Source of the DNA: Bdellovibrionales bacterium
Lineage (GTDB): Bacteria > Bdellovibrionota > Bdellovibrionia > Bdellovibrionales > UBA1609
NCBI GenBank assembly: GCA_965261545.1
Contig: CBDHDF010000002.1
Location: forward strand, 480,001-544,000
Reading direction: 5' to 3'
DNA: 64,000 nucleotides
Positions 14,542 to 64,000 of this stretch are shown in pieces. The position numbers and the translations under genes are program-made. Each line of letters opens with the position of its first letter. The stretch's first letter is position 1. Under the pieces are notes generated by a model. The model searched no databases. It was not told the origin of the DNA and saw only the letters and a list, made by a program, of their open reading frames with translations.

Positions 14542-14547
14542 AGTATT

Positions 14548-15439: not shown

Positions 15440-17665
15440 TTGTCGGAAAATACTTGAACCACCATCCTCGGGTCCACCGTCACTAATGCTCCAACCACGA
15501 TCACTCAGGGCGCTTCGTGCATCAGTGGCACTGCTATTGTATTTTGAATTTCCACCATGGAATGAAATATTATTCTGTTGTGAGGTGCTGTGGATTTGGT
15601 TGAGCAGGCTGCTGTATATTGCCGTGGGAAGGGTGAGCCCTTCAAGCATGTGACTCATGTTTGTGACACTAAGGAAATTCCATGGGGTCATATCGGGTTG
15701 AGCCATTGGGGCTTGCCTAAACATAGCACTCATGTTTGTGACATTGGAGACATCCCAACCGCTTACGTCGGGATTGGCAACAACTGCCCCATTAAACATA
15801 TTTCCCATGTATGTGACACTGGAGACATCCCAACCGCTTACGTCGGGATTGGCAACAACTGCCCCATTAAACATATTTCCCATGTTTGTGACATTGGAGA
15901 CATCCCAACCACTCACATCGGGATTGGCAACATATGCCCTAGAAAACATACTACTCATGTATGTGACATTGGAGACATCCCAGCCGCTGACATCGGGATT
16001 GGCAACAACTGCCCCATTAAACATAGTACTCATGTATGTGACATTGGAGACATCCCAACCGCTTACGTCGGGATTGGCAGCAGATGCCTCAAGAAACATA
16101 GAACCCATGTATGTGACATTGGAGACATCCCAACCGCTTACGTCGGGATTGACGGCCGTTGTCTGAGCAAACATAGAACCCATGTCTGTCACCTTGGATG
16201 TATCCCAACTGCTTACGTCGGGATTGGTGGCAGACGTATCATAAAACATAGCACTCATGTTTGTGACATTGGAGACATCCCAACCGCTTACGTCGGGATT
16301 GGCAACATATGCCCCAGAAAACATAGAATTCATGTTTGTGACCTTGGATGTATCCCAAAGGCTTACGTCGGGATTGGCAACATACGCATCGGAAAACATA
16401 TTGCTCATATCTGTGACCTTGGATGTATCCCAAAGGCTTACGTCGGGATTGGCGGCAGGTGCACGATAAAACATATTACTCATATCTGTGACCTTGGATG
16501 TATCCCAAAGGCTTACGTCGGGATTGGCAACACCTGCCTCAGAAAACATAGAACTCATGTCTGTGACCCTAGAAACATTTCCTCCCCCCAGATCAAGAGC
16601 CCGGGATTGCCTAAAGGCTCCTTTTAAACTCCGCCACCCCACATCGCCTAGGTCTTTCACAGAGATGAGTTTTAACCGATGGGCTGTCGCCTCTTGATCG
16701 AAATTCCAAGCCTCAAGGGTCCCCGAAATGGTGACAGTGTAGTCTCCAGCTGTTGCATAGGTATGTGTGACATCGCTGTCATCATGGGATGTGATCTCAC
16801 TGGAGGAGGAATCATCCCCCCAATCCACAGTAAAATTATACTTGTATCCTGAGGGCAAGGGGAGAGCGATGGCTTCGTTTGCTTGAGAAGTTCTCCAAAC
16901 AGAGACAAAGAAAGAAAACCCTCCATCGTTGATACTCCACCCTCGTTCTTTTAAGAGTTGTCGGATATTTTCGGAACGACTGTCGTACTTAGAACTCCCC
17001 CCATCCAATGTGAAATTTTCTTGGGTGGAGGTTTCATAAAGCCGCTGAAGGAGTGTGTTATAGGCCACTGTGGGAAGGGTGACTTCACTGAAAGTTTCAT
17101 CCATCTTTGCCAAAAGAGCAAAATTCCATCCACTGAAGTCTATTTTTTTTATAGAAGTCGCCCCTTTGAACATGCGATCCATGTTTGTGACATGGGAGAC
17201 GTCTCCTCCTCCGACTTGACGAAGGTTGCTGCAACCATTAAAGGCTCCCTCTAAGTTGATCCACCCCGTATTCCCTAAGTCGGTCACAGAAGTGAGTTTG
17301 TCTTTGCTCCCACTGTTGTTGAAATACCAAGCCTCAAGCTCCCCCGAAATAGTGACAGTATAATCTCCAGACTCGGCATAGGTATGAGTGATATCGCTGT
17401 CATCATGGGATGTGATCTCACTGGAGGAATCATCCCCCCAATCCACAGTGAAATTATATTGATATCCTGATCGCAGCGGAAGAGTGATGGACTCATTGTC
17501 ACTGGACAAACGCCACACAGAGATAAAGGGAGAAGCTGCCACAGAAGGAGCTTGTTTTGTATCACTACAGCCTAAAAGACTCGCCATGGTCAGGCCAACA
17601 AAGAGACCCATGGTAAGTAAAGGTAGGGGGAGGGGGACTCTTGCAAAAGTTTGTAATGGAGTCAA
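15437..17665 (-). CDS. DUF285/BspA-like LRR surface lipoprotein, paralog 2 (12 repeats)
   Basis: Same caps and lipobox as paralog 1; TTG at 17665 after GGAGGAGG preferred over GTG at 17701. Confidence 0.9.
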   Translation of the reverse strand: MTPLQTFARVPLPLPLLTMGLFVGLTMASLLGCSDTKQAPSVAASPFISVWRLSSDNESITLPLRSGYQYNFTVDWGDDSSSEITSHDDSDITHTYAESGDYTVTISGELEAWYFNNSGSKDKLTSVTDLGNTGWINLEGAFNGCSNLRQVGGGDVSHVTNMDRMFKGATSIKKIDFSGWNFALLAKMDETFSEVTLPTVAYNTLLQRLYETSTQENFTLDGGSSKYDSRSENIRQLLKERGWSINDGGFSFFVSVWRTSQANEAIALPLPSGYKYNFTVDWGDDSSSSEITSHDDSDVTHTYATAGDYTVTISGTLEAWNFDQEATAHRLKLISVKDLGDVGWRSLKGAFRQSRALDLGGGNVSRVTDMSSMFSEAGVANPDVSLWDTSKVTDMSNMFYRAPAANPDVSLWDTSKVTDMSNMFSDAYVANPDVSLWDTSKVTNMNSMFSGAYVANPDVSGWDVSNVTNMSAMFYDTSATNPDVSSWDTSKVTDMGSMFAQTTAVNPDVSGWDVSNVTYMGSMFLEASAANPDVSGWDVSNVTYMSTMFNGAVVANPDVSGWDVSNVTYMSSMFSRAYVANPDVSGWDVSNVTNMGNMFNGAVVANPDVSGWDVSSVTYMGNMFNGAVVANPDVSGWDVSNVTNMSAMFRQAPMAQPDMTPWNFLSVTNMSHMLEGLTLPTAIYSSLLNQIHSTSQQNNISFHGGNSKYNSSATDARSALSDRGWSISDGGPEDGGSSIFRQ

Positions 17666-18049
17666 AGCTGACCTCCTCCGCTCATATTTTTTTCTTCTCA
17701 CCTTTTCTTCTTCTCAACTCGATATAAGAATATATAATATATATTATATGTGCACTCTGGTTAAGGTGAAAACGCTGATTTAGATTTATAGACTTTATAA
17801 ATAAGAGGATCGAAGGAAGTCCTGCTCAAGGTCGTGGTTTTGGGTAGATTATTCTGGATAAAGTACCCGAGTTTGACAGCAGCAGGTGTGTTAAATGGCT
17901 AAAATTGGTCTGAGCTAAAATATATCCATAGTAGAGCGAATTTGCGGAAAAAAGTGTGGTAAACAAAATATGAAAAAAAATCATTCACATTACTGTTATC
18001 ACTTGATCTTATTCATTTTTAGTAGTCACATTTCCTTATGTTCATACGG

Positions 18050-45465: not shown

Positions 45466-45582
45466 ATTGCCTACTGTTTAAGAAATAGGAAACCTAGAAT
45501 CCAAGCTAGTGAGCATGAGGAAGCCTTCTAAAGGCTTTCTAAAAAAAACAAAACTGGGTTTAAGCTATCATCGGAAAATACT

Positions 45583-47637
45583 TTAACCACCATCATCGAG
45601 TCCATCGTCACTAATACTCCAACTACGATCTATGAGGGCGCTCCGTGCATCAATAGCACTATTATTGTATTTTGAATTTCCACCATGGAATGAGATATTA
45701 TTCTGTTGTGAGGTGGTGTGGATTTGGTTGAGCAGGCTGCTGTATATTCCCGTGGGAAGGGTGAGTCCTTCAAGCATGCTACTCATGTCTGTGACACTAA
45801 GGAAATTCCATTGAGTCATATCGGGTTGAGCCATTGGGGCTTGCCTAAACATAGAACTCATGTTTGTGACATTGGAGACATCCCAACCGCTGACGTCGGG
45901 ATTGGCAACATCTGCCCCATCAAACATATAACTCATGTTTGTGACATTGGAGACATCCCAACCGCTGACGTCGGGATTGACAACATCTGCCTCATCAAAC
46001 ATATGACCCATGTTTGTGACATTGGAGACATCCCAATCGCTGACATCGGGATTGGCAACATCTGCCAAATAAAACATATAACTCATATTTGTGACCTTGG
46101 ATGTATCCCAGCGACTCACATCGAGATCGGCCATATTTGCATCGGAAAACATAAAGTTCATATTTGTGACCTTGGATGTATCCCAGCGACTCACATCGAG
46201 ATCGGCCATATTTGCATCGTAAAACATATAACTCATATTTGTGACCTTGGATGTATCCCAACCGCTGACGTCGGGACTAGCAACATCTGCCCCACCAAAC
46301 ATATAACTCATATTTGTGACCTTGGATGTATCCCAACCGCTGACGTCGGGATTGGCAACATCTGCCTCATAAAACATATAACTCATATTTGTGACCTTGG
46401 ATGTATCCCAACCGCTTACGTCGGGATTGGCAACAGATGCCTCAGAAAACATAGAGTTCATGTTTGTGACCTTGGAGACATCCCAATCGCTGACATCGGG
46501 ATTGGCAGCTTCTGCATCATAAAACATGCTACTCATATCTGTAACCCCAGAAACATTTCCTCCACTTAGATACTCAAGGGCTTCGCATTGCCTAAAGGCT
46601 CCTTTTAAACTCCGCCACCCCACATCACCAAGATCTTTCACAAAGATGAGTTTTAACCTATGTGCTGTAGCCTCGCTATCGAAATTCCAAGCCTCAAGGG
46701 TCCCCGAAATGGTGACAGTGTAATCTCCAGCTTCGGCGTAAATATGAGTGATATCGCTGTCATCATGGGACGTGATCTCACTGGAGGAATCATCCCCCCA
46801 ATCCACAGTAAAATTATACTTGTATCCTGAGGGCAAGGGGAGAGCGATGGCTTCACTTGTTTGAGAAGTTCTCCAAACAGAGACAAAGAAAGAGAACCCT
46901 CCATCACTGATACTCCACCCTCGTTCTTTTAAGAGTTGTCGGATATTTTCGGAACGGCTGTCGTACTTAGAGCTCCCCATATCCAATGTGAAATTTTCCT
47001 GGCTGGAGGTTTCATAAAGTCGCTGAAGGAGTGTGTTATAGACCCCTGTGGGAAGGGTGACTTCACTGAAAGTCTCATCCATCTTTGCCAAAAGAGCAAA
47101 ATTCCATCCACTGAAGTCTATTTTCTTTATAGAAGTCACTCCTTTAAACATGCGATCCATGTTTGTGACATTGGAGATGTCTCCTCCTCCTACTTGGCGA
47201 AGGTTGCTGCAACCCTCAAAGGCTCCCTCTAAGTTGATCCACCCCATATTCCCTAAGTCGGTCACAGAAATGAGTTTGTCTTTGCTCCCACTGTTGTTGA
47301 AATACCAAGCCTCAAGCTCCCCCGAAATAGTGACGGTGTAGTCTCCAGACTCGGCATAGGTATGAGTGATATCGCTGTCATCATGGGATGTGATTTCACT
47401 AGAGGCACCATCACCCCAGTCCACAGTGAAATTATAATTATACCCTGATCGCAACGGAAGAGTGATGGACTCATTTTCACTGGACAAACGCCACACAGAG
47501 ATAAAGGAAGAAGCTGTCACAGAAGGAGCTTGCTTTGTATCACCACAGCCTAAAAGACTCGCCATGGTCAGGCCAACAGAGAGACCCATGGTGAGTAAAG
47601 GTAGGGTGCATCTTGTAAAAGTTTGTAATGGAGTCAA
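45583..47637 (-). CDS. DUF285/BspA-like LRR surface lipoprotein, paralog 3 (10 repeats)
   Basis: Same caps, lipobox SLLGC, TTG start and ~175-bp upstream region as paralog 1. Confidence 0.92.
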   Translation of the reverse strand: MTPLQTFTRCTLPLLTMGLSVGLTMASLLGCGDTKQAPSVTASSFISVWRLSSENESITLPLRSGYNYNFTVDWGDGASSEITSHDDSDITHTYAESGDYTVTISGELEAWYFNNSGSKDKLISVTDLGNMGWINLEGAFEGCSNLRQVGGGDISNVTNMDRMFKGVTSIKKIDFSGWNFALLAKMDETFSEVTLPTGVYNTLLQRLYETSSQENFTLDMGSSKYDSRSENIRQLLKERGWSISDGGFSFFVSVWRTSQTSEAIALPLPSGYKYNFTVDWGDDSSSEITSHDDSDITHIYAEAGDYTVTISGTLEAWNFDSEATAHRLKLIFVKDLGDVGWRSLKGAFRQCEALEYLSGGNVSGVTDMSSMFYDAEAANPDVSDWDVSKVTNMNSMFSEASVANPDVSGWDTSKVTNMSYMFYEADVANPDVSGWDTSKVTNMSYMFGGADVASPDVSGWDTSKVTNMSYMFYDANMADLDVSRWDTSKVTNMNFMFSDANMADLDVSRWDTSKVTNMSYMFYLADVANPDVSDWDVSNVTNMGHMFDEADVVNPDVSGWDVSNVTNMSYMFDGADVANPDVSGWDVSNVTNMSSMFRQAPMAQPDMTQWNFLSVTDMSSMLEGLTLPTGIYSSLLNQIHTTSQQNNISFHGGNSKYNNSAIDARSALIDRSWSISDDGLDDGG

Positions 47638-47954
47638 AGCTTACCTCCTTCGCTCATATTTTCTTCTTTTCACCTTTTTTCTTCTCAACTTGATATAAAA
47701 AGATGTAATATATATTATATGTGCACTCTGGTTAAGGTGAAAACGCTGACTTGGATTTATGGACTTTATAAATAAGAAGATCGAAGGAAATCCTGCTCAA
47801 GGTCGTGGCCTCTAACCCACATTTCTCACAAAGATATACTGGAATTCTGACTGGATATACCCATAAAATTTACTGGAAATATAGTGGACCCCAAAAACAG
47901 ACTGGTTGCTAAGTTACACCGCAGCGGGTAAAAAGCCCCTCATAGGAGGGGATA

Positions 47955-49086: not shown

Positions 49087-49359
49087 CACGGGGCTTCTTT
49101 GTGCGCTGTGGTGTAGCTTAAAAATCAAGTTTTTCAGTCTGACATTGGGGTCCACCTCAAAAGGCACTAGGGATGTAATATGATTGATTCCGATTGTATA
49201 ATCGTAAATTCAGAAAAAGAGATAATCGATTTTGGGGTGGATAATACTCTCATCTTGATAGATCCAGTAATAATTTCCGTCACTTTCTTATTCTGAATAG
49301 CATCAATTAAAGAGACCACTATGCTATTTTATGATAAAAGAAAGAATGAAGCCCCTTAC

Positions 49360-49743
49360 TTATTTCTTATATGTTGTAGATCTTTTTTTGATAAGCCCCC
49401 AGCGAACTCTCAGAAACTTCGCTAAACGCACAAATTCAACTCTTTCTTGTGATGTAATCTTCTGACCAAACTTAATCCATTCAAGCTCAGAGCCACCTAC
49501 CTTGGGGGTTTCTAAATAAGGAAGGTTTGAAAGAAGGTTTGGATTGACTCCACGTGCTATAAGAAGGCGAACCAAAGTGTCGGCATTAACGGACTTTCTT
49601 CCAGACATGGTGCGTAGTGTTTCCGGACTCAGGCCAGCCTTTTTGGCAACCTCAGACCTTTCTTTAGGTTCCATGCCCTTTGGAACAACAAACTCCATAA
49701 GGCTTTCAGTAATAGATTTAACTTGCTTGTCCAAGATGGCCAT
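49360..49743 (-). CDS. Putative Xre/Cro-like HTH regulator, copy 1
   Basis: RSEVAKKAGLSPETLRTM..RKSVNADTLVRLL; near-identical paralog at 51568. Confidence 0.65.
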   Translation of the reverse strand: MAILDKQVKSITESLMEFVVPKGMEPKERSEVAKKAGLSPETLRTMSGRKSVNADTLVRLLIARGVNPNLLSNLPYLETPKVGGSELEWIKFGQKITSQERVEFVRLAKFLRVRWGLIKKRSTTYKK

Positions 49744-49933
49744 AGAACTCCCCCTTCCAATAGATTATCTCTCCAAGGGTTATTCTTTGTTATAAAATAA
49801 TTGTTACAAAAATATTGATTTAGATATGATATTTGGTAATGTGACTCTGTAGCTTTTTTCCTCTGAGTGACTCCAAGTCACATGAAAATTCCTAAAGAGG
49901 AATAAAGAGGACAACTTTACAAAGGACAGTAGT

Positions 49934-50302
49934 GTGGCTGAAGTAAGCAAGTACAGGATTCAAGATATATTTGACTCATACGAAGACTATATATTGTATC
50001 TCAAAAAGACATATTCTCTTTTTCAAGATTTAAAGCAAAGTAAAGACCCATCATTCTCAAAGATTGTTCCAGAGTACCTCGAAATTGAGTTCATCCAAAC
50101 TCTTAAGGCTCCAAGACTCTATTATCCGAGAAATAAGGGGGTCATCATTGTACAATTACCTTTGGGAAAAAGTGCAGGATTAAAACAGAAGGAAGCTCTA
50201 CGCTCCAAGGCTCTCATTACTTTTTCGGCTATTGTAAAAATAAACGAAAAAGCCATGGCTGAAGAATTTGCCATGAGCCTCAAGTTGTTTGAATCAGAAT
50301 AG
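49934..50302 (+). pseudogene. Internally deleted or diverged paralog of 50540-51367
   Basis: First ~49 aa homologous; short later patches (IEFI, LKAP) echo the long paralog. Confidence 0.6.
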
Positions 50303-50539
50303 CCATTTGAGGGCCTGCGAAGGATGAAATGAATATTTATCAGAAAGTCTTAGGGCTTATAAAAAATAAATTGAACTAAAATTGTACTGTTTTACTTTAA
50401 GATCTAATTGAATAAGCTCAATTTATTTTTTTACAAGCTCTTAGTTCATTGGTAATGGACCAAAAAAATGATACTTGATCTACTCAATTTAATGGCACTA
50501 CCTCTTTAAATCAATTATAATTGTCAGCTAACAGCAGGG

Positions 50540-51367
50540 CTAGGAACTTAACCAATTGTGAGTAGGAAAGTAAACTTGGACTTGATTCCCATGGTTTTTC
50601 AGGCTTCTTGCAATCACTCTTCCTCCATGCAACTCAATAAAACATCTTGCGAAATAAAGACCTAGACCACTTCTTTTCTCCAAACTCTGGCACTTTGAAG
50701 ATTTACGAAATTCTTTAAAGGCTCTATTGCATTCTTCGAGACCTATATGAGTTCCTTTTTTAATGAACTCAATCCTAACTTCACCTTGTATTCTTTGCGT
50801 TTTAATCAATATGTACCCACCCATCGGTGAAGACTTTATGGCACTTAGGATAACCTCGGCCATAGCTTCATAGAAGAGGACTCCATCTACCCCTATCATA
50901 GATATGGGATCAAGCTGTCTTTGAATAGTGATTTTTTTCTTTTGTGCACAGAAGCTGGAATCTTGGATGATATTTTCGATAATTTCACTTATATCTATGG
51001 AAATCTTAAGAGATTTGATATATTTGAGTTTAATTGTTTTCAACATGCGATCTATATTTTGATTGATCTCACAGGCTTCGTAGTGTAGGCATCTGGCTTT
51101 AGCTGTAGACTTGGGAGGTAAGTCTCCAGAAGATGAACGAGCACAAATGGACTGAATTTCAAGCATAGGTGCTTTTAAGTCTTGGGCCATAAAACTTAAA
51201 TCGTCTTCTAACTCCTTTTTTAGATACTCTGAAATAATTCCTGGAAATGATGGACCTTGACTCTGCTTTAAATCTTGAAAAAGAGAATATGTTTTTTTGA
51301 AATACGATATATAGTCTTCGTATAAATCAAAGATGTCTTGATCCCTATATTTGCTTATCTCAACCAC
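50540..51367 (-). CDS. Histidine-kinase-like protein with degenerate catalytic boxes
   Basis: H-box-like LSFMAQDLKAPM; G2 SGLGLYFA..IELHGG intact; N and G1 boxes altered. Confidence 0.78.
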   Translation of the reverse strand: MVEISKYRDQDIFDLYEDYISYFKKTYSLFQDLKQSQGPSFPGIISEYLKKELEDDLSFMAQDLKAPMLEIQSICARSSSGDLPPKSTAKARCLHYEACEINQNIDRMLKTIKLKYIKSLKISIDISEIIENIIQDSSFCAQKKKITIQRQLDPISMIGVDGVLFYEAMAEVILSAIKSSPMGGYILIKTQRIQGEVRIEFIKKGTHIGLEECNRAFKEFRKSSKCQSLEKRSGLGLYFARCFIELHGGRVIARSLKNHGNQVQVYFPTHNWLSS

Positions 51368-51567
51368 ACGACCCTTCCTTTGTAAAAGTTGCTCTCCTTC
51401 TTTCCTCTTTGAAGTTTTCCATGTGGTTTGGAGTCACCCAAAAGGAAAAAACGAAAGGCTATAGGGGCACAATACCAAATATCATATCTAAATCAATATT
51501 TTTGTAACAATAATTGTATAGCAAGGCATAAACCTTGGGGAGATAATCTACTAGACGGAGGGGTTCT

Positions 51568-51951
51568 ATGGTCATCTTGGACAAGCAAGTTAAATTCATT
51601 ATTGAAAGCCTTATGGAGTTTGCTGTTCCAAAGGGCATGGAACCTAAAGAAAGAGCTGGAGTTGCCAAAAAGGCTGGCCTGAGCCCTGAAACACTACGCA
51701 CCATGTCTGGAAGAAAATCTGTCAATGCTGATACTTTGGTGCGCCTTCTTATAGCCCGTGGAGTCAATCCAAAACTTCTTTTAAATCTTCCTTATTTAGA
51801 AACCCCCCAGGTAGATGGTTCTGAGCTTGAGTGGATCAAGTTTGGTCAGAAGATGAAATCACAAGAAAAGGTTGAGTTTGTGCGTTTAGCGAAGTTTCTG
51901 AGAGTTCGCTGGGGGCTTATCAAAAAAAAATCTATAGCATATAAGAAATAA
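51568..51951 (+). CDS. Putative Xre/Cro-like HTH regulator, copy 2
   Basis: Paralog of 49360-49743; RBS GGAGG. Confidence 0.65.
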   Translation: MVILDKQVKFIIESLMEFAVPKGMEPKERAGVAKKAGLSPETLRTMSGRKSVNADTLVRLLIARGVNPKLLLNLPYLETPQVDGSELEWIKFGQKMKSQEKVEFVRLAKFLRVRWGLIKKKSIAYKK

Positions 51952-52229
51952 ATAGGGGGACTTTAATTGGCTCCCGATGGAATGCCAAAGCTAGAAAAGA
52001 AGCGACTTCGAGAGTCTGCTTCTTGGGAATATCAGCCACAACGCATGGCGGCGTTAGGGATTCACTGTCGACACTGATGCTTGGCATGAGATGGCCCAAA
52101 GGTATTGTGAATTTACCAATAACCAAGCCTTCAAGTGAACCTCATAACTATAAACACCATAATGGTTATTGAAGGAGCCTTTATGCACCCTGTAAACCAC
52201 GAAGATGCGCCTCCAGTGTTTCTCAGTGC

Positions 52230-53872
52230 CAGCAATTCCCGTCGAAAAATAGTTTAGGCCACAGTAGCGGCTTCCAAAAGATTCGCCTCAAAAAGAGTTC
52301 GTAGACTTTTGCCTAAGTATCTGTTTGAATATTTGTTGTTGCACATCAGACCAAGGAGGGTTCGTCATGTCGCATCAACATTTTAGAAAAGGTCTATCCG
52401 CTTCAGGAATGTATTCCCTGCTACACAGTAAATCTCTTGCAGTTCCAGATATAAGATCGCAGCGTCCCCATAGGATTCCTCTGAGCGATGCCATTATGTC
52501 ATCTGTGGCAATGTTTGCCTTGAAAGATCCATCCATGCTTCAGTTTTGTGATCGTGTCCATGACCCAGTGGCAAAAAACAACCTACACCATTTGTTTCAA
52601 ATAGGCCAAATTCCTAGTGATACGGCTATGCGAGAGATTTTAGATCCTGTTCCAACCCGTGAGTTTCAAAATTTTTTTAAATCTTTGTTTACCGTAGCTC
52701 AAAGAGGGAAGGTTTTGGAGGGTTACCCATATTTGGGTGGAAAATATCTTCTCAGCATTGATGGAACAGGTGCCTTTAGCTCCTCGACTATTCATTGTGA
52801 GAATTGTTGTATAAAGAATCATCGTGATGAGACGAAGACCTACTATCATCAAATGTTAGCAGGAGTGATTGTTCACCCCGATAAGAAACAGGTTATACCT
52901 ATTGCTCCAGAGCCCATTTCAAACACAGATGGATCGAGCAAAAATGATTGTGAGCGTAATGCAGCCAAACGACTCCTTGAAGATTTTCGCAGGGAACACC
53001 CTCACCTTCCAGTGATTGTTATTGAGGATGGATTGGCTTCCAATGCTCCTCACATCACTCTTCTTAACGAATTAAAATTAAGTTATATTTTAGGCTGTAA
53101 GATGGGGGACCACAAAGTTTTATTTGAGTTTGTAAATGGAGCAGATAGCTTAGGAACAGTTTCTCACTTCACCGTGGTAGAGAATGGAGTGACACATGAA
53201 TTTCGATTCATAAATGATGTTTCACTCAATGATTCAAATCCTGATTGTCGAGTGAATTTTATTGAATACAAAGAAACGAAAGCAAACGGTAAGGTTCAGC
53301 ACTTTAGCTGGGTGACTGACATTGAGATCAACGAAGACAACATAATGCAAATAATGAGGGGGGGAAGAGCACGCTGGAAGATAGAAAATGAAACATTTAA
53401 TACGTTAAAGAATTTGGGTTACAACTTTGAGCACAATTTTGGCCACGGCAAGCAAAATTTGTGTAACAATTTAGCCGTGATTATGATGCTGGTATTTTTA
53501 GTGGACCAACTTCAACATTTGGCCTGTAAATTGTTTCAAAAGGCGGTAGAAAAAGAGAGGAGACTATCTTATCTATGGGATCATATGAGGGGGTATTTCC
53601 ATACCCTATACTTTAAAAATTGGCAGGAACTCCTCGCCATAATGGCTTATGGGATTAAGCCTATTGCTGCCTCAGATGTTTTCGACACATCATGAGCAGC
53701 CATTTTTCTCAAAGTGCCCCAAAGAGTTTAACGTATTTGCCCTAAACTAAAGTCTGGACATTCGCCTCTAAATGGCGAAGACGGGGAGGTTTACCTTATT
53801 CGATGCAGTGCAATTCTCACACTGAGATTTGGAGGAATTTCAATGTTTTTTCAAGCTCGGCGGGAATTTCTG
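52230..53872 (+). mobile_element. ISNCY-type element, copy B (transposase 52367-53695)
   Basis: Near-identical to 19900-21542; 9-bp TSD TCTCAGTGC. Confidence 0.94.
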
Positions 53873-54234
53873 TCTCAGTGCCCATTGGGTTGACTTAGTT
53901 TTCATAAGCTTTGAAGTAGATCCTAAAATTTTAGCACCTCATTTACCTTATGGAACAACACTGGATTTCTTTCATGGAAAAACCTATATCAGCCTCGTAG
54001 CATTTCTATTTAAAGATACCAAATTGGTAGGAAGAATTCCTGCCATCTTTCATCGAAACTTTGAAGAGATTAATCTAAGATTCTATGTTCTCAGGCAAGA
54101 AGGGCAGAATTTAAAAAGAGGGGTTGTTTTCATCAAAGAGTTTGTACCCAAGCCACTTCTTGCTTGGGTGGCACGGACCTTTTATCATGAAAATTATGCC
54201 AGTCTCCCCATATATAGCAAAATCAAAAGGGGAG

Positions 54235-57200
54235 TGTTAGGCGCCAATTAAAATTGGCCATTTTTAGAAGCCGTCGCCAATGAAAAACGGCCAGTTGATG
54301 ATGTACTGATTTAGTTATTCTTCGTTCAGAGTTTAGTCAAGTGTCTTTATTTTGCTCATCATTTAACTCGGACTATGCCACAAGATTCTGAGGAATGATT
54401 TTCTGCCCACCACTTTTGGCATGACCCCAAATGCATCCTTCAGCCCTATGGCAGAGGTAAATGGAGTATTTTTCAGGATTCCTTGGCGCAGCTAATGTCT
54501 AAAGCTCCGCGAGAGTGACGAGCAAATAGTACGGTAAAAGCCAGTTATCCATAAATTTATCCATGGCGACACTGCGGCTGTGACCCCGATGTCTAGCAAC
54601 GCAGTGCTGCTGTGGATAAATTTTGTGGATAACTGGCGAGTTCCTTCCCCAAAAGTGGGGATCTCTAATGAACTTCTTTGGTTGAACTTTCCTCTTTGCT
54701 CTGTTTAGACTTGGCTTTTGCCGATTCGGTTCTCCAACTTTCTTTTCCTTCAATGTTGAGGGTTTCACAGTTGTGAATGATTCGATCAACAGCAGCAGCG
54801 GTGGTAATAGGGTTAAGAAACACCTTATCCCATTCAGAGTATGTTAAGTTTGTAGTGATCATGAGACTTTTCCTTTCATATCGCTGAGATATGAATTGAA
54901 AGAAAAGATCTGCCCCCTCTGTGCAGGAAGCTGTATAGCCAAGTTCATCACAAGCAATAAGATCAAAACGGTCTAATTTCTTAAAAAGAGCATTCAATGA
55001 GAGTTCTTTCTTGCTTTCACGCATTGTTTCAATAAGTTCATGAGTGGTGACCCATAAACATCGATAGCCTTGTTCACAGAGTGAACGAACTAGGGACATG
55101 GCCAAATGACTTTTCCCCATTCCAAAGCTTCCGTAAAACACAACATTACAGGCTTTTCTGACCCACTCTCCCTCTGCCATCCAATTAATTTGCTGAGCTG
55201 TCACTCCCGTTCTTTTCTGGAAGTTATAAGTTTGGAGTGATTTAAGTTGAGGAAGCTTGGCCCCCTTAAGCAATCTTTTCACTCTCTGGGAATGCTTGTC
55301 AGCAAGCTCATTTTGAACGAGTATACCTAAATACTGTTCATACGTCTTTTTTGTTTTTTCGGCAACTCTAGCCGTTGCAACATATTCATCCGCCATCGCT
55401 GGAAGTCGGAGTTTTTTAAGAGAACCTATAAGTTCTTCGTGATTCATTAAGAACCTCCTATGTTTGGAACAAGACTGTCATATTGAGACAATCTAGGTTG
55501 AAGTGGTTTTTGTTGGTCATTCAAATTAATTTTGGTGGGATTGCCTAAGAGCAAATCTTTTATGGATTTAAAGTCGAAAATCTCACGACTTTCTAATTGA
55601 AGCTCCATGGCTGTAGATAAGTCCTGCCAACTCACATGCTGAATCAAGTTGATAACTCTTAAATATTCATGCTCGGCACGGCTTGAATCTTGTTGCTTGA
55701 GGTATTGATAAAAATTTTCAAACACATTTGTTGGAAAAAGAATGGATCGGTGAGCCCATCTTACCATGGCTTGCGGCTTACGAACTAAAGAGGGAAGGAT
55801 ATGTTCAAGAAGAAGACTATGCTCCCCATCAGGTTTTCTTTGATGGCGAGCGACAATTTCTTGCTTCCCTCCTGCACGATAGATCGTGACATGATAGGGA
55901 CCCTGTACGGTTTTACAGGGAGATTGGATCACCTCATCAGGTATGGAATATGTGGTTTTACCTATTCTCAAAGTCCCATAACCATTACTTTGACAAATAT
56001 TCACCTTACAGAGAATATCTTCATCTCGTGGAGGCAAAGGCTTAAGAACTTTGGCCTCCTCCTCAAAGCGAGATTTGGTGGAGTCACTCTGATGCTGATC
56101 CATATAAGACTCTAAAAACTGATTCAAATGATCCCAGTCTTTAAAAACAATTCCTTTGTTTCTAACAATATTTTTTATCCGAGAACTGAAGGTTCGAATA
56201 TCACGCTCCACATCTCCCTTGTCAGAGCCCTTCCCTGCGCGGCAGGGAAGAACCTTAAATCCATAGTATTGGATGGCTCGATCAAAAGATTGGGTGTAAA
56301 TTCGCTGATTTCCTTTAAGAACTTTCTTCACACAGGGAGATAAATTATCAATACGGATGTTCGCACTCATCCCACCTATCTTTTCAAAAAAAGCATGCAC
56401 CCCATCGATGAAACACTCATAGACAAGAAAGGGGTAGGCACGAACCCAACAGGTGCCACTACAAGGCAATGTTCCAAAATGGAGATGAACGATCTGAACA
56501 CCATCGGCAAATGGTAAAGCAACCTTCTCCTTAAAATCAAACTGAGCCTGTTCTCCAGGATCATATCTTTGGCTGAAAAAACGCTCCTTGGGGCGAGAAC
56601 CAAGAATCTCACAAACTCTTCTCTGAACCGTTCTCTCACTCCCACGATAACCCTCCTCAACTAATAGCTCATATATTTCACGGGCGGTGTTACTTGGGTT
56701 CAACTTCAAAAAGTACTTCACCCGATCCATATATCCATTAAGGGGATCTGGGCGAGTTCTTTTGGACCTCGCCTTGTACTTCGGTGGGGTGTTGGACTCA
56801 CAGTACTTGCGCACCGTCTTACGATTGATCCCTAATTCACGAGATATTTCTGTCTTATTTTTACCACTGTGACTCAGGTCACGAATGCGGCCGAAAGTGT
56901 ATTGACTAATCATAAGATCCTCCTCATTGCTAACCTTTTGAGTTGCAAGAGGGAGGGACTCTGTGAGCTTAGTATCTATATCAGAAGAAGAGACTTCATT
57001 GTCTAGTATTTGAACACTCCCTGAAGATTGGTCACTTTTCATTGGCGACAACCTCCATATTGAAAGTGGGACATTTTAATTGGCGACGGCTTTAAGGGAA
57101 GCCTGTCTTTAGAAAGAAATTCCATGAAAATTGAGGCAAATGTTGGAATCTTGTGGAATTTAAATACTTTAGAAAATGGGCACAGCCTAAACAGGCTTTT

Positions 57201-57480
57201 CTTGACTATATATTTAACCTCATTGAAATCCAGAAACAGTCTACAAATGACAAATATGGAACCTGAATAGGCTGTCATGGAAGGACTCTCCAACACGGAG
57301 CCCCTTTCCAGGTCGACAAGAACCCAAAAGGAGTTCTTATCAGCTCGGAGCCTTTTTATGAGTAATATCAATTGATTATATGCGTCTCGGTTGACAATGC
57401 CAAAAATCACCATAGGTCCTCCTCTGAAAAGTGGCCACTTTTCATTGGCGACGGTGGGGCATTTTAATTGTCAGCTAACA
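54235..57480 (-). mobile_element. IS21-family element type 2, copy B (istB 54665-55447, istA 55447-56913)
   Basis: Near-identical to 41070-44315; 5-bp TSD GGGAG. Confidence 0.95.
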
Positions 57481-58213
57481 GGGAGAACACTACAAGTACC
57501 AGTGGAGTTCTCACAGTGTAACCGTTCATTCCAGTGGCAAACTACTAAAGGCCACAGAGCAATCCCTGGATCGATGGATTACAGAGCACTACTGGGGTTA
57601 CACTCGCATAGGAGGACCCCATAAAACATGGGAGTACAAAGTTCAACACCCCGTGTGGGACCTCTACGTAGTCACTGGTCACCATTTAGATGTAAACTTT
57701 GAAGCACTTTATGGACAAGAATTTGAAACTTGTACAGCAACTCAGCCCTCCTCTGTAATTTTAGCCCAAGGCTCTGAAGTAAATGTCCACTGGCCTAAGC
57801 ATATCAAAGCAACAGGTCTCCATTCATGAAGGAGAGCCTTAGTCTCTGCCTGAATACTCTAATGACAGGTGCCCTTTTACGTCACTTATGTTGAAAAGAT
57901 TGATAGTTTTTGCCGCCACCCCCTTTCATGCAACCTCATTCACTTTAAAGCCTCTCAGGTCGAACCTCAAGAAATCAAATAGCATAAATAGCGTTGTCCC
58001 AAAAATGGCCTCGTTTAAATAGGAGGTCGCCTTAAATGGACCATGGGTGGTCCATTGAAGATATTTAAATATTTCAGAAAAAAAGTGTGTCATTTCATAA
58101 TGATAAATACTTTTCTTTTGCACACACCTCATATCTTGACCCAAACTTTGGTCAATGGAATGACAGTGAGATGGTGTGAGTTCCTTGAAACCCACTTAGG
58201 TTTGAATACAGAT

Positions 58214-58230
58214 TTGGCATGATTTATGCT
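58214..58230 (+). promoter_or_regulatory. Sigma54 (-24/-12) promoter candidate
   Basis: TTGGCATGATTTATGCT = GG-N10-GC, upstream of a bEBP-led operon; palindromes at 58035-58056 and 58136-58155. Confidence 0.68.
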
Positions 58231-58532
58231 TATAAAAATCTATGAAAGCATTTTTTAATTTACATCATTTGAACTTACATCATAAAGGCTCATATATTTT
58301 TAGGTCTATATTAGAAACCACATCTTTTGATTTACTCCCCATCATAGCCTCTAAATATTACAGGAAAGAAAAGAACTAAGAGGAATTAAGAATAAGGTGT
58401 CACGCCCACCTATATATGAAAGACATGTTCATAACATGAAAGACATGCTCATATAGTTCATATAGATATATAGGTCGTATAAAGGGCTGTAGGCAATAGA
58501 TTCGATTCTACAATAGTGGGAGGTATCAATCA

Positions 58533-59963
58533 ATGAACTATAAAATTCTTATCGCCGATGACCAAGAATCTGTTCTTGATAATTTTCGAGAAATGTTCAA
58601 AAACCATTTGGACATTGAGCCCACCCTGACCCAACAATCCTTGGATGCCTTAAAGCTTATCCAAGAAAACCCCTATGATTATGCCGTTGTTGTTCTGGAC
58701 TATCATTTTGAAGGTCAAAAACTCAATGGAGCGCAGGTGGCTCAAGAGATTCTTAAGATCAACCCCAAGCTGATTGTTCTTATTTGCACAGGGGACATGG
58801 GGCGAGAAGCTCCTATTTCTTGTCTCAAGGCCGGAGTGAGTGACTTCATTCAAAAAGACGAACCCCTTGATAAGATTATTGCTAGAATTAGATCCAATTT
58901 TAGGAAGTTTGATGAACTCTCACGAGTGGTGACAAGCAAATCCACCCAATGTCAGTCCCACCAAAAAGAATTTGAAGATGCATCTCTGATTTCAAAATTG
59001 GGTATGGTCGGTTGCTCTGCATCTATGGCTTCAGTGGCACAAAAGGTCTTGACCTTGAGTAAAAATGGAGGGGATAAATCGACAATACTTATTCGTGGTG
59101 AGTCGGGAACAGGAAAAGAGCTTGTTGCAAGAGCCATTCATGAAAACTCATCTCGAAAGGCAAAGCTTCGCATTGATATCAATTGTGCTTCTATTCCAGA
59201 GGGTCTTTTAGAATCAGAGCTTTTTGGCCATGAAAAGGGAGCCTTTACGGGAGCGGATAAAAAGCGACTTGGTAAGTTTCAGGTGGCCACAGGTGGTACA
59301 ATTTTTCTTGATGAAATTGGTGAAATGCCCAAAGAACTTCAGGCTAAACTTCTTCGAGTCTTACAAGAAAAAACCATTGAACCCATTGGCTCCAACTCTC
59401 CCATACCTGTGGACGTTCGAGTGATTGCCGCAACACATGTGAACCTTGAGGAAAAGGTTGAATCTGGGGAATTTAGGGAAGACCTCTTTTATCGACTGAA
59501 CCAAATACCCCTCTTTATTCCCTCCCTAAGAGAGCGTCCCGAAGACGTTGCCCCCTTGGTCACCCACTTTATGGACAAGCACTCTGGGAGAGAAAAGAAA
59601 AAACTTATGTATAAGACCTTGCAATACTTAAAATCTTACCAGTGGAATGGCAATATTCGTGAACTCGAAAACACCATCAAGCAATTGGTTGTTTTAACCC
59701 CCAGTGATGAGATTCGTCCAGAGCATCTTGATGCTAAGATATTTGAAGCCAACAGCAGGGCGGCCACAATGTCGTATCCAGAGTTTAAAAATATTGTGAA
59801 TAAAAAAGTCGAAGAGGAAGAAAAAGAATTTCTTGTCTCAAGAATAAGAGCTTATCCCTCCTTAAGGGCTGCGGCAAAAGCTCTATCTATACCAAAAACT
59901 TCACTCCAGAGAAAACTCTCTGAATGGGGATATTCTTCAAAGGGCGAGGGGGTGTTGGTATGA
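58533..59963 (+). CDS. Sigma54-dependent response regulator (NtrC/AtoC-like bEBP)
   Basis: Receiver (ILIADD, VVVLD), GESGTGKE, GAFTGA, FLDEIGE, FREDLFYRL, C-terminal Fis-type HTH. Confidence 0.95.
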   Translation: MNYKILIADDQESVLDNFREMFKNHLDIEPTLTQQSLDALKLIQENPYDYAVVVLDYHFEGQKLNGAQVAQEILKINPKLIVLICTGDMGREAPISCLKAGVSDFIQKDEPLDKIIARIRSNFRKFDELSRVVTSKSTQCQSHQKEFEDASLISKLGMVGCSASMASVAQKVLTLSKNGGDKSTILIRGESGTGKELVARAIHENSSRKAKLRIDINCASIPEGLLESELFGHEKGAFTGADKKRLGKFQVATGGTIFLDEIGEMPKELQAKLLRVLQEKTIEPIGSNSPIPVDVRVIAATHVNLEEKVESGEFREDLFYRLNQIPLFIPSLRERPEDVAPLVTHFMDKHSGREKKKLMYKTLQYLKSYQWNGNIRELENTIKQLVVLTPSDEIRPEHLDAKIFEANSRAATMSYPEFKNIVNKKVEEEEKEFLVSRIRAYPSLRAAAKALSIPKTSLQRKLSEWGYSSKGEGVLV

Positions 59964-62774
59964 GTTTCTTAAAAACAATGGAAGACTATCTACTCAAAAA
60001 GGCTATAAAGCATATTGGAGGCCAAAAAAACATGGCCATTCAACTGGACATTACAAATGCCTGCAATCTTAAATGTTCCCACTGTTACCATTCCAATCAT
60101 AAAAATACGGGAGCTTTAAACCTTGAAGGCTGGCTTGAGATTCTTGACCAGTACGACAAGATGCTTCAAACTCTCAAGCTACAACCCTATATTGTGATTT
60201 GCGGTGGGGAACCCACATTAAGCCCCCTGAATTCATGGTTAAAAATATACACCAGGATTATTCTTCTTCAAAAATTTTGAAAAAATCTCATTTTCAAAGG
60301 GAAAATTCAATTTTTTCTTAGATTTTAATAAAAAATCTATTTTCATTTTCTCAAAAATGGTGTATAAAATATACACCATGACAAAGGGGGTGAAATGAGT
60401 TTTATAAGAAGAATAAAGAAAAAGAACGGTCAAGTTTATTTAGCTGAGGTTGAAAATAAGTGGATTGATGGTAAGTCTGTGCAAAAACACATTCGTTATC
60501 TTGGCAAAGAAGTCGACGGTGAAACAGTAATTTCTCTTTCATCAAAAGATCTTCAAGTTGATAGTGTAAAAATTTATGGCCCACTTCTTGTATTTCATAG
60601 TATTGCGAAGAAGATTAATCTTCCAGATATTCTAGGAGAATATTCTAATGAAATATTAAGTATGGTTTATGCTCATTGTATGGATTATAAGAGTGTTCAC
60701 AAAATGCCATCATGGTATAAGCGTACAGATTTAAATCTTCTTTTAGGTTTAGACAAGCTAACAGAAAATCGTTTAGTCTCAGCCATGGATAATCTAAATG
60801 AATCTAAGATACATGAATATCAAAGAAATATCTTTAACAATGTAAAGAAGATATATAAATTAAATTCAAAAGGAATTGTTTACGATGTAACAAATACTTA
60901 TTTTCATGGAAAAACATGTGGTTTTGGAGAGAAAGGAAAGAGTAAAGATGGCAAACGTCAAAATGACCTCATACAAATAGGTTTAGCAACAACTCAAAAA
61001 GAAGGCATCCCAGTTTTTCATAAAAGTTTCAAGGGAAATATTCATGACAGTAGAACCTTAATGTCTCTTTCAGATAGTTTTAGTGAGTACCGATTGAATT
61101 CAGGTTTATTTGTATATGACCGAGGCATCACCTCTGAAAAAAACCTAAATTCTATAGGTAAAATGGGCTGGAAAACACTTTGTGGATTAACAATGAGAGA
61201 AAAAGAAAAGAATGCCATTAGAAAATTGTTGAAGAAGGGGTCTATGGATCAATTTTCTAACATGGTTCAAATAAATGGAAATGTTATTTATGTCAAAGGA
61301 ATTCCACACAAATTTGGATCGATTAAAGGAAAATTAGCCATTTGTTATAATGAGACTAAGAGAATAGAGATTAAAGAATCTAGAAGAAACAAAATTGTGG
61401 AAGCTCAGAAATTAATAAATGAAAATAAAGAAATTTTGATCGGTCTTGATAAATATTTAACTTCTACAGGAAGATTAAGAGAATTCGTACTTCAAAATGC
61501 TGAAGAATTTGATGGATACTCATGTATTTTTTGTACTAAAAATATACCTGATGAAGATATGGTAAGACTTTATTATGATAAAGATATTATAGAAAAAGCA
61601 TTTCGTACTCTTAAGGGAGTATCAAAGTTAAGGCCTATTCGATTTAGATTAAAAAAACGTGTGGAGACTCACGTGTTTATATGCTATTTATCTTATCTTA
61701 TACTATCAATTTTAAAATTAAACTTAAAATCTAAAGGCATAGATATATCGTCAGAAAAAGCAATTGAAGATTTAGAGGATATGTACAATGTTTATTTTTG
61801 TGATAATAAAAAGAAAAATAAATTTATTAGATCTGTGACTTTAAGTAAACATCAAGAAAGAATATTACGATCAGTAGACTCAAATGTTCTCAAAAACCAT
61901 GTGATACGCCCTTAAGAAACCTGGTGTATACTTCTGGGCAGAAATTCAGGTAAGCCCTTATCTCTTTTCTATTCTAAAAAGAGCCAATGAGCTTTGGGAA
62001 AGTCCCACCATTACGATTCTCACCAATGGCACAAGGCTTACGGACAAACTACTGTCTTCCCTCAGTGAGTACAATATGCGGTTTCAAGTCTCTTTAGATG
62101 GCCCTGATGCTAAGAGGCATGATGCTCTTCGTGGTAAAGGGAATTTCCAAAAGGCACTGGAGGGAGCCAAACGGGCAAAGCAGTACGGCATTGAGACAAA
62201 CATTTTAAGTATTTTATCAAAGAAGACCTCCCATTGGATTCCAGAGTTCTTTCAAATGGCCAAGGAAAACAGCCTTGATTCCATGAGTTTTACAAGATTT
62301 ATCCCACAGGGTTTTGGCGCAGAACTTGTCGAAACGGGTGGGGATGATTCCTTATATGGTTTTGAGTTAAGAGATGCCATGCAGTCCATCATCCATTTTT
62401 CAGAAAAATATGAAGTTCCAACTTCAACAGACCACCCCTTATATCACCTCATTGACCCCACGCTTGGTCATAATGGCCGTTTTGGATTTCAGGGCCTTGT
62501 TGTGGATTACAAAGGTAACTTGAAGGTCTCCAGCAGAGCCGACTACATACTTGGAAATATACTCGACGAAGGTCTTCAAAATTTATTTTTACACCATCCT
62601 TTGATGAAGGATTTGAGAACCCCCCAAAAGATCAATGGGTGCGGTGCTTGTATGTATTATACCCGATGTGGTGGAAATAGAAATATAAGCTATGCCACAA
62701 CAGGAAGTTTCTTAGAAAAAGATAAAGGATGTTGGATTCCGTCAGCATCTACAAAGAAAGGAGTTGTCGCATGA
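59960..62774 (+). pseudogene. Radical SAM/SPASM-like enzyme split by an IS1634 insertion
   Basis: CNLKCSHC, GGEP; removing the IS and one TAAGCCC restores GGEPTLSPYLFSIL..TNGT..QVSLDG; C-terminal Cx2Cx5Cx20C. Confidence 0.92.
60226..61950 (+). mobile_element. IS1634-family element (transposase 60395-61915)
   Basis: TIR CCTGAATT..TATACACCAGG; TSD TAAGCC(C), 6-7 bp; YDVTNTYF, YDRG, IEKAFRTLK motifs. Confidence 0.93.
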
Positions 62775-63145
62775 AGAAGTTAATAAGAAAAAGTATTTTA
62801 GGAATTATATCTCTTATGCCAATACAAGCATTAGGATTTGCTTCAGATTTTTCCTCAATTTTTTTATCAGACATATATGAAGATAGTGCTCCAAATACTG
62901 CAAACCAAGAATATGAAAAAGAACTTGTGAGACGACTTGAAGAGGGAACACTGTCTCATAAATATTATGATTTCATGGAAAAGCATAGAATACATAGCAC
63001 GGATGATCTATTGTCTTCTCGATCTCAGAATCATTTAAAGAAGCTCACAAGAGAATTTATTAAAGATATCCATGAACCACTTCTTGCAAGTAAAAATGTG
63101 ATATTATCAGAAAATCTAAGCGACGCATGGCCAAAGAAAAAATGA
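62771..63145 (+). CDS. Secreted small protein (124 aa), candidate peptide precursor
   Basis: RBS AAAGGAG; ATGA overlap with the rSAM stop; signal MKKLIRKSILGIISLMPIQALGFA; ends SDAWPKKK. Confidence 0.8.
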   Translation: MKKLIRKSILGIISLMPIQALGFASDFSSIFLSDIYEDSAPNTANQEYEKELVRRLEEGTLSHKYYDFMEKHRIHSTDDLLSSRSQNHLKKLTREFIKDIHEPLLASKNVILSENLSDAWPKKK

Positions 63146-64000
63146 AAAATAAAAAGGATTTTTGTATAATGAAGAAAATATTATTTTTAACTACCTTAAT
63201 TATGGCTATATCTTTTATTTATTGGATAGGTAGCCAAAAGGAGAAAGGTGAGATGATCTTAAAAGTAGGATATCCTGGCAATTGGCATGACCTTATACCA
63301 TCACTTCAACATACGGCTTATGCTGACGATATCATGCATAACCAATTTGAAACATTAGTTGTTATTGGCAGAAATGGAAAATCTGAAAGCATGGCCGCCA
63401 AATCGTGGTCCATCAGTGATGACAAAAGATCATTTACTTTCAATATTGATACAACTCGTAAATTCTCCAATGGAGTTTCGTTATCAGCAACTCACTTCAA
63501 GGAGGCATGGGAGTATAGTCTCACCATTGATCCAAAATCTTCAAATAATAGCTTACTCGATGTTCTTTATAAAATTAAAGGATTTGAAGACTATGAAAAA
63601 AATGGAGAAATATCTGGAATTAAGGTTATTGATGACTCTACTTTAAGAATTGACTTTCAGAATACTTTTCGCATAGGTCTCAATCATTTGGCTGGAACAA
63701 GAATGGCTGCCTTCATAAGGGAAGGAAATAAGTTTCTTGGCACAGGACCCTATGTCATCAACCCAATAAGCAGTGAAGAGCTTCTTCTTACTAAAAATAA
63801 TTTCTATGAAGAGTCGATACCTTTTGACAAGGTGAGCGTCAAAGTTGTTCCTCCTCAGCATTCTCGTGATGCGCTAGGAAGAGGTGAAATTGATCTTTAT
63901 AAATTTGCTGAGATTGGTTATATTGATTCTTGCTTTGATAAAAATGTAGAATGTATTTCTGGCTCTGAAAATCGCCATATAGCTATAGCACTTAACGGAA
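63142..64000 (+). CDS. Family-5 (OppA/DppA-like) solute-binding protein, runs off the window end; absent from the ORF track
   Basis: Hand translation: N-terminal TM, NQFETLV..G..MAAKSWSISDDKRSFTF.I...KFSNG, GIKVIDDSTLRI, LGTGPY; ATGA overlap with the upstream stop. Confidence 0.88.
   Translation, partial: MKNKKDFCIMKKILFLTTLIMAISFIYWIGSQKEKGEMILKVGYPGNWHDLIPSLQHTAYADDIMHNQFETLVVIGRNGKSESMAAKSWSISDDKRSFTFNIDTTRKFSNGVSLSATHFKEAWEYSLTIDPKSSNNSLLDVLYKIKGFEDYEKNGEISGIKVIDDSTLRIDFQNTFRIGLNHLAGTRMAAFIREGNKFLGTGPYVINPISSEELLLTKNNFYEESIPFDKVSVKVVPPQHSRDALGRGEIDLYKFAEIGYIDSCFDKNVECISGSENRHIAIALNG

Follow-up and report, generated by a model that had tools for sequence, protein, structure and literature searches.

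The window analysed here is a 64,000-nt stretch of DNA from a Bdellovibrionales bacterium (positions 480001–544000 of contig C2 of the genome). Its last genes belong to a cassette (Table 1) that encodes, in order, a sigma-54 activator (i.e. a bacterial enhancer-binding protein, bEBP), a radical S-adenosylmethionine (SAM) enzyme, a small secreted protein and a family-5 solute-binding protein (SBP_bac_5), and that continues beyond the window edge with a hybrid histidine kinase. The sequence features of the cassette suggest that the whole is probably a self-activating modified-peptide autoinducer circuit of mobile elements, with the small protein as precursor of the signal. The gene identities proposed for the window in a preliminary description were confirmed, including that of the secreted 124-aa protein (open reading frame (ORF) 62771–63145), which has a hydrophobic N-terminus and the C-terminus SDAWPKKK. 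The radical SAM gene (59960–62774) is split by a 1725-bp IS1634 insertion sequence (IS) with imperfect 37-bp inverted ends. The three ATGA overlaps by which these genes had been described as chained (59960, 62771 and 63142) are all in the sequence, but the last is probably not the real start of the binding protein; ATG 63169 is favoured because the binding proteins of four related loci start at the aligned position.

Table 1. Genes and candidate regulatory sites of the cassette (window positions unless prefixed C2)
Feature	Position	Strand	Remarks
Distal enhancer-like palindrome (candidate bEBP binding site)	58037..58054	.	178 bp upstream of the sigma-54 site; equivalent at -154 to -178 in 11/16 loci
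Proximal enhancer-like palindrome	58137..58154	.	78 bp upstream of the sigma-54 site; equivalent at -66 to -78 in 13/16 loci
Sigma-54 (-24/-12) promoter candidate	58215..58230	+	site ≤400 bp upstream of the activator in 12/16 loci
NtrC-type sigma-54 activator (bEBP)	58533..59963	+	476 aa; receiver (Response_reg), AAA+ (Sigma54_activat) with GAFTGA, HTH
Radical SAM gene, 5' part	59960..60225	+	carries the CxxxCxxC motif; interrupted in the window copy
IS1634-family insertion sequence	60226..61950	+	transposase 60395-61915; 7-bp target duplication; other full copies in the genome are near-identical
Radical SAM gene, 3' part	61951..62774	+	SPASM-like domain; AuxII four cysteines only
Secreted precursor	62771..63145	+	124 aa; signal-like residues 1-24, invariant Pro17, helical pro-domain ~41-100, invariant Ser117 (codon 63119-63121)
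Family-5 solute-binding protein	63169..64000	+	N-terminal hydrophobic anchor; frame open from 63142; gene extends past the window end to C2:544698
Hybrid histidine kinase	C2:544698-546413 (window numbering 64698-66413)		571 aa; directly after the binding protein, beyond the window edge

The kinase has two membrane helices, a periplasmic loop of ~105 aa, His225, a HATPase domain and a receiver with Asp517. It is followed by an unrelated gene for an FRG-domain protein with ~23 TPR repeats (C2:546536-550045), and neither permease nor ATPase genes were found in the region after the binding protein. The preliminary description had predicted a histidine kinase downstream, with oppBCDF as the refuting alternative, and it is the kinase that is present.

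The enzyme belongs to an unnamed subfamily of 305 sequence clusters (E ≤ 1e-20), found in 23/390 genomes of the class and in 15/401 of a phylum sample; named carriers are Bdellovibrionales, Bacteriovoracaceae, Oligoflexia, Silvanigrella, one Elusimicrobiales and one short Bacteroidia contig, and the host is accordingly presumed to be a diderm of the Bdellovibrionota. Conservation was counted over 45 distinct loci with an enzyme identity of ~40% or more, which are kin and not independent; distant radical SAM loci (<~40% identity; 66/80 and 77/80 in two sets) and duplicate fetches were left out of all counts. Among loci with enough sequence, a precursor ORF lies 3' of the enzyme in 40/41 (the remaining locus has one that spans an N gap), the binding protein is present in 33/34, and binding protein and kinase are both present in 29/30, i.e. 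a LuxPQ-type arrangement in which an orphan binding protein has an intact membrane kinase as its neighbour. The core of radical SAM enzyme, precursor, family-5 binding protein and kinase recurs across Bdellovibrionota, with conserved gene order. The permease and ATPase genes that accompany the binding protein of an Opp/Dpp importer are missing: the four Opp permeases of this genome gave a match near the cassette in 0/28 loci, and no PF00528 match was found near cassettes. Import via Opp systems encoded elsewhere could still occur. The enzyme and binding-protein trees have their main clades in common, with members of one host family scattered over several clades, as expected for a unit that moves.

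Precursor length varies from 49 to ~130 aa across loci, and two parts are conserved, namely a signal-like N-terminus with an invariant proline and a serine near the C-terminal end. The proline is also seen in candidates chosen by hydrophobicity alone. The middle is a predicted helical pro-domain (pLDDT >90 for residues 51–100) that is absent from short members. Tails were compared for 35 complete precursors, after five that were truncated or open had been dropped, and a serine was found at -10 to -2 in 34/35 of them as compared to a background of 43%. In the alignment of the window clade (17 sequences) only M1, P17, Y65 and S117 are invariant, the serine being kept in 17/17. A serine was also present in 103 of 110 further homologs, a count biased by a search profile that contained Pro-Ser. 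The precursor would, with good confidence, be the substrate of the enzyme, and on a modest balance of probability the conserved serine would be the modification site. In one record (P0142) enzyme and precursor are naturally fused, with the inner start retained; it speaks for the circuit, although it stands alone and could be erroneous sequence. For the precursor there was no Pfam family above cut-off, no NCBIfam family, no usable Atlas match and no fold match above Z 4.6, database nulls that show neither novelty nor absence.

The preliminary description had the enzyme crosslinking the W-P-K of the tail, as in triceptides or in darobactin, where a C–C bond joins W3 to K5 of the core (PMC10705402). 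The motif is real in the window copy, 8/35 tails have a W among their last 10 residues, and the crosslinking enzyme SuiB is, with ChlB, among the structural neighbours. However, the motif is not conserved: W-x-K is found in 1/35 tails and in 3 of the 110 further homologs, and W/F/Y/H at -8 to -3 in 10/35, so that no aromatic-x-x core is kept. The closest tails read LSDAWPKKK, MSDFLWP, LSAIPPN, LSAIPPE and LSGIPPQ, with W120 aligned with Pro in the closest relatives, and an in-genome paralog whose enzyme is 92% identical ends in WP-stop. The DynA, GrrM/OscB, YhhB and WgkB models gave 58–92 bits against cut-offs of 310–650 (WgkB at best 91.6/650, DynA 68.6/450). The enzyme also has no ligands for AuxI, the cluster that is reported to act as oxidant in the Lys-Trp crosslinker SuiB (PMC10114670). 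An aromatic crosslink is very improbable on this evidence, and that part of the preliminary description is not supported.

The intact enzyme allele of this genome (360 aa, C11:302999-304081) was modelled as a radical SAM/SPASM fold (pLDDT 90.6; top Foldseek matches E 1e-13 to 1e-15). The nearest structures are SkfB, SuiB, anSME and ChlB at 17–21% identity, with a TM score of ~0.65–0.70 to SuiB, ChlB and anSME. The CxxxCxxC motif (C35/C39/C42 in 101/102 sequences) and a partial TIM barrel place the enzyme in the radical SAM superfamily. The AuxII cysteines 317/320/326/347 are kept in 101/102, the positions equivalent to the AuxI cysteines of anSME are non-Cys, and residues 245–316 are without any Cys in 90/102. 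The seven to eight cysteines and two auxiliary clusters of a canonical SPASM domain are thus not present. The anSME ligand assignment is presumably correct and is consistent with PMC10452713. That loss of AuxI is unique to this enzyme was considered and rejected, AuxII-only SPASM domains having been described in AhbD of non-methanogenic archaea (PMC10452713); cluster loss is therefore neither unique nor decisive for the chemistry, and the argument that an enzyme lacking AuxI must be redox-neutral is weakened as well. Cys81, just before GGE, is Cys in 92/102 and Ser in 10/102; a Cys serves as quencher in the epimerase EpeE (PMC13012085). The likeliest chemistries suggested by these features are serine oxidation, as in anSME, or epimerisation.

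No NCBIfam cut-off was reached by the four intact enzymes scored (best 128.7 of 395 bits). The highest scores were those of TIGR04053, ACGX, AhbD and NirJ, which would suit an AhbD/NirJ-like enzyme producing or modifying a small molecule or cofactor sensed by the binding protein, the small protein being an unmodified partner or inhibitor. Such an origin of the signal would also fit the AuxII-only AhbDs, the lack of a recognition element (below) and the range of family-5 ligands, which also includes nickel chelates, heme and opines. It is nevertheless unlikely: the scores lie well under cut-off (92–127 bits vs 500 for AhbD), no pathway genes are conserved as neighbours or travel with the enzyme, a YcaO protein occupies the enzyme slot in sister cassettes, and the binding protein covaries with the precursor and not with the enzyme.

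This covariation was seen as synonymous divergence (dS) between pairs of cassettes. For loci L211 and L213, dS was 0.32 for the activator, 0.40 for the enzyme, 1.30 for the precursor, 1.99 for the binding protein and 0.47 for the kinase. For two copies in this genome, on contigs C11 and C10, it was 0.10, 0.32, 1.08 and 1.47 for the first four genes and saturated for the kinase. The peak of synonymous divergence on precursor and binding protein, the genes in the middle, suggests that the two are exchanged together as a block, a reading drawn from these two pairs, two others being saturated or incomplete. This genome accordingly holds two precursor–receptor pairs (38% and 56% identical) with enzymes that are 92% identical. 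It is likely that the binding protein senses the precursor product. A complex prediction of the binding protein (40–518) with the mature precursor (25–124) scored 0.00 with controls not folded, and is no evidence either way.

Enterococcal pheromones derive from signal peptides and bind PrgZ, a family-5 homolog, and the signal could likewise be the signal peptide itself, with its conserved Pro-x-S-S-x-A-F-A stretch. The signal region is the best conserved part of the precursor, with Pro at -8 from a cut after Ala in 34/40 precursors vs 2/63 other signal-like N-termini in this genome (a rough heuristic). Against this, the L211 and L213 binding proteins (82% identical) track the mature part of the precursor (~70%) and not its first 40 residues (98%), and the tail serine would be left unexplained, making a signal-peptide pheromone quite improbable.

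In the sensing arm, the binding protein carries one hydrophobic helix at its N-terminus, and its matches include structures of the peptide, nickel and PrgZ types. In the kinase, ~105 residues are enclosed by two membrane helices in 24/24 loci, and the phospho-acceptor His is kept in 30/30 and the receiver Asp in 22/30. On the output side, the activator combines a GAFTGA AAA+ domain with a receiver, rpoN is present in the genome, and a -24/-12 site lies upstream in 12/13 loci with a G[AST]FTGA activator (the 13th has a one-base variant) and in 0/3 with GAFTDA, as compared to ~0.1 expected overall. The palindrome TG[AT]C[CG]-N7-9-[CG]G[AT]CA stands at fixed upstream distances in 13/16 loci vs 0.08 in shuffles, although the motif was defined on the same sequences as were counted. 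As both promoter and palindromes lie upstream of the activator gene, the activator very probably autoregulates its own operon, in support of the earlier proposal that it closes the loop. Genome-wide, sigma-54 sites with this palindrome are the three cassette promoters only, and no wider targets of the pattern were found in this genome.

This restricted set of targets also bears on whether the product is an effector (i.e. an antagonistic peptide or mating-exclusion factor), with binding protein and kinase as a self-protection or induction sensor and not a density sensor. Location on mobile elements and defence-like neighbours (TIR, caspase, OLD-like) would agree with such a role, and block exchange also suits effector–immunity pairs. 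An effector is nonetheless improbable, since the only targets are the cassette promoters, tails are short and mostly neutral, and no exporter, immunity membrane protein or peptidase accompanies the unit.

Several further features were noted around the regulatory genes. Two 18-nt direct repeats, 20 apart, lie at 58416-58453 in the 300-bp leader from promoter to activator; contigs from runs X1 and X2 carry a 10-nt insertion at these repeats, and the leader exceeds that of relatives by ~250 bp. Beyond the FRG-domain gene, a lone enhancer-like palindrome is present at C2:550491-550508, unaccompanied by a sigma-54 site and followed by a tRNA-Pro (550841-550917). Some cassettes of both enzyme types contain, between regulator and downstream genes, an ORF of 68–73 aa resembling by eye a lone kinase His helix (L022:6781-6987, L080:6771-6992 and C2:30759-30977). 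Locus L223 has a divergent 481-aa binding-protein-like gene (by eye) and an opposite-strand sigma-54 site 1.1–2.5 kb upstream of the enzyme gene.

Elsewhere, this genome has four further orphan family-5 genes, each in a unit that comprises a regulator, a small secreted ORF, the binding protein, a YcaO and a kinase; the YcaO, of 336–346 aa, takes the radical SAM slot. YcaO is another class of peptide-modifying enzyme, and this shared layout supports the reading of the cassette as a modified-peptide circuit. These cassettes (L241, C2:29382-35648, with a duplicate at C11:438665-444946; L242, C11:476837-482758; L243, C11:224656-230524) each head a conjugation gene cluster, the three that were fetched lying divergent from pilin and VirB4-like genes, and no strict sigma-54 site was found in their regions. 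Of 24 loci of the radical SAM form on contigs of ≥36 kb, 8 have a VirB4-like gene at a distance of up to 25 kb, all 8 being among the 16 with an adjacent activator; such a gene is 20 kb from the C10 copy and 40 kb from the C11 copy, and the window copy ends 4.4 kb before a tRNA-Pro. Control of conjugative transfer as the output is a tentative proposal, made by analogy to PhrI and iCF10 and kept at the level of hypothesis because no convincing sigma-54 site precedes the tra operons. A compact conjugation cluster recurs at L241-L246, L252 and L254-L258, comprising a sigma70-region-4 protein, TrbC pilin, VirB3-like, VirB4-like, FtsK-type coupling and Replic_Relax-like proteins and a serine recombinase, with the VirB4-like gene split in two in the window's clade. 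Directly upstream of several cassettes are TIR (ThsB-like) and caspase genes (L251:15714-17633, by Pfam; L014:223-1016, by eye) or an OLD-like nuclease (L248:3338-5128).

The IS in the enzyme gene had been taken to make the strain signal-negative. A second copy of the cassette (C11:301572-307723) is 98.3–99.9% identical to the window copy and has the promoter and all five genes intact; on account of this copy the strain is probably not signal-negative. In a third copy (C10:140515-149894) an IS sits in the activator gene and not in the enzyme. The first two copies are not favoured as an assembly artefact, for their flanks and IS insertions differ and contigs from runs X1 and X2 (both of the same sample, which may be the source) join across the IS. 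Co-binned strains could still account for the multiple copies (completeness of the assembly 96.8%, contamination 3.7%). A remnant activator adjoins a tRNA-Pro at C2:221.4–222.1 kb (C2:221321-222126, L004), with an internal deletion of ~500 bp, and the same deletion (508 bp) is present in a contig of run X5 from a different study. An IS burst is under way in the genome, in which a 3.2-kb IS21-like element is present in >20 near-identical copies, beside several elements of the IS1634/IS4 type (in the window 54235-57480, 52229-53872, 60226-61950 and many more). IS elements strike different genes in different cassette copies, and at L016 the precursor breaks off ahead of its tail and is followed by a transposase. 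An IS21-like element also breaks a DUF2071 gene at 53829-57830, an intact DUF2071 gene being found at C11:300067-300858.

The modified-peptide circuit would operate in four steps. Firstly, the enzyme would act in the cytoplasm on the precursor's C-terminal tail, modifying Ser117 (the conserved serine) or a position beside it; for recognition it would probably use the conserved signal/leader, in which the proline is invariant. That precursors with a signal peptide are modified in the cytoplasm before export has a precedent (PMC13056109). Secondly, the precursor would be exported via its signal peptide and the tail, freed or still on the pro-domain, would be the signal, with specificity set by the residues around the serine. 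Thirdly, the membrane-anchored family-5 protein would bind the modified tail and switch its partner kinase, whose own periplasmic loop is small, as other binding-protein-controlled kinases do (PMC9602780; 10.1101/2020.01.10.902320). Fourthly, the kinase would phosphorylate the activator, which would bind the two palindromes and fire the sigma-54 promoter of its own operon. Travelling on integrative mobile elements, the unit would most likely report the density of cells with the same element type. This scheme keeps the overall circuit first proposed, which is supported by the kinase, the synteny, the sigma-54 promoter with its enhancer sites and the precursor/binding-protein covariation, and drops the W-x-K crosslink and the signal-negative strain.

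Several points weigh against this scheme, in addition to the limits given above for the palindrome motif, the homolog serine count and the fusion record. Gene content, synteny, motifs, promoter elements and block exchange were observed directly, and modification, export, binding and signalling were deduced from them. The activator adjoins the enzyme gene in only 20/45 loci (some others having no upstream sequence or another response regulator), and the sigma-54 loop is therefore not universal. The enzyme has no recognition element (RRE) of the kind found in enzymes for peptides that are made on the ribosome and modified after translation (RiPPs), its radical SAM motif beginning at residue 35, and the cassette has no processing peptidase or outer-membrane export gene. 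Apart from the serine, the tail is so variable that no single chemistry is evident, and 5/35 tails are without the usual residue-Ser context. As to mobility, conjugation genes are near only 8/24 loci, no VirB4-like gene was found near the window copy, and no convincing sigma-54 or enhancer sites were found ahead of tra operons in 8 loci and three downstream regions of this genome.

In agr circuits, the peptidase AgrB acts on a Cys-thiolactone precursor and the regulator is of the LytTR type. The cassette shares with agr (AgrB/D/C/A) a single operon that encodes a modifying enzyme, a precursor, a kinase and a response regulator, predicted positive feedback, and a precursor–receptor block that varies while its flanks are conserved. 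It differs in that no parts are homologous (Pfam and NCBIfam give other families, and none for the precursor), a radical SAM enzyme stands for AgrB, the receptor is a separate binding protein, the activator is sigma-54-dependent and the host is diderm. The tail has no conserved Cys, nor was any Cys found in the window precursor, unlike the substrates of AgrB thiolactone chemistry (PMC13056109). The pathway downstream of LuxPQ (-LuxU-LuxO) has the sigma-54 activator LuxO as output. In Vibrio LuxP-LuxQ, CBP-ChiS and BctC-BctE, as proposed for the cassette, a periplasmic binding protein controls a hybrid kinase (10.1101/2020.01.10.902320; PMC9602780), but their ligands are AI-2, chitin oligomers and citrate and their units hold no peptide precursor or modifying enzyme. 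Judged by its sequence, the cassette would thus work like agr wired through a LuxPQ-type receptor, while belonging to none of agr, the triceptide/darobactin, canonical SPASM or AhbD enzymes, or Opp importers.

Other systems share single features with the cassette. The pCF10 (cCF10/iCF10-PrgZ-PrgX), ICEBs1 (RapI-PhrI) and pLS20 systems have an element-encoded secreted peptide, the family-5 PrgZ and signalling genes beside the transfer region; their peptides are unmodified, permease-imported and sensed inside monoderm cells by RRNPP proteins (PMC6540685), whereas the cassette has a modifying enzyme, a membrane kinase, no permease and a hypothetical link to transfer. DarE, DynA, GrrM and SuiB share a radical SAM/SPASM fold beside a small precursor (PMC10705402, PMC10114670), the cassette differing in that its precursor has no conserved aromatic-x-x core and its enzyme lacks AuxI ligands and scores far under the family cut-offs. 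The best full-length sequence match among solved structures is anSME/AtsB, which converts Ser/Cys to formylglycine and acts on a protein Ser (PMC10114670), but at ~20% identity and with both auxiliary clusters. The quencher of EpeE, a non-cluster Cys to be compared with Cys81, is Cys223 elsewhere in the chain (PMC13012085). Some AhbDs keep, like the cassette enzyme, only a CX2CX5CX20-38C cluster, but their substrate is a porphyrin (PMC10452713). The MNIO-modified signal-peptide RiPPs (ChrA, MelA1 and DybA) have an N-end secretion signal, a variable body and a C-end motif modified in the cytoplasm before export, with another enzyme class and motif and no sensor module reported in the available text (PMC13056109). 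Literature searches found no description of this cassette, most subscription papers and supplements lying beyond their coverage.

Peptide autoinducer circuits are known mainly from monoderms, and diderm binding-protein/kinase circuits sense small molecules. If correct, such a circuit with a modified peptide would be an additional class of signalling, found in diderms, and offer a handle on communication in predatory-bacteria lineages and their mobile elements; the enzyme, in view of its single auxiliary cluster and its probable serine target, may add to RiPP chemistry. The two precursor–receptor pairs served by 92% identical enzymes in this genome offer a ready test. More speculatively, and with some doubt, Bdellovibrionota mobile elements may carry a modular autoinducer family with a new radical-SAM serine (or YcaO) modification, family-5 and kinase sensing, sigma-54 feedback and block-swapped specificity that times conjugative transfer.

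Two other gene groups of the window were noted. At ~49350-51951, an inverted pair of 127-aa HTH-like genes surrounds a HATPase-only gene (275 aa) and its 122-aa fragment; this group is duplicated with the cassette on C11 and was not noticed in the loci of other genomes. Several DUF285/PKD surface-protein genes with 75-bp repeats (10895-17837 and 45494-47879) accompany the islands.

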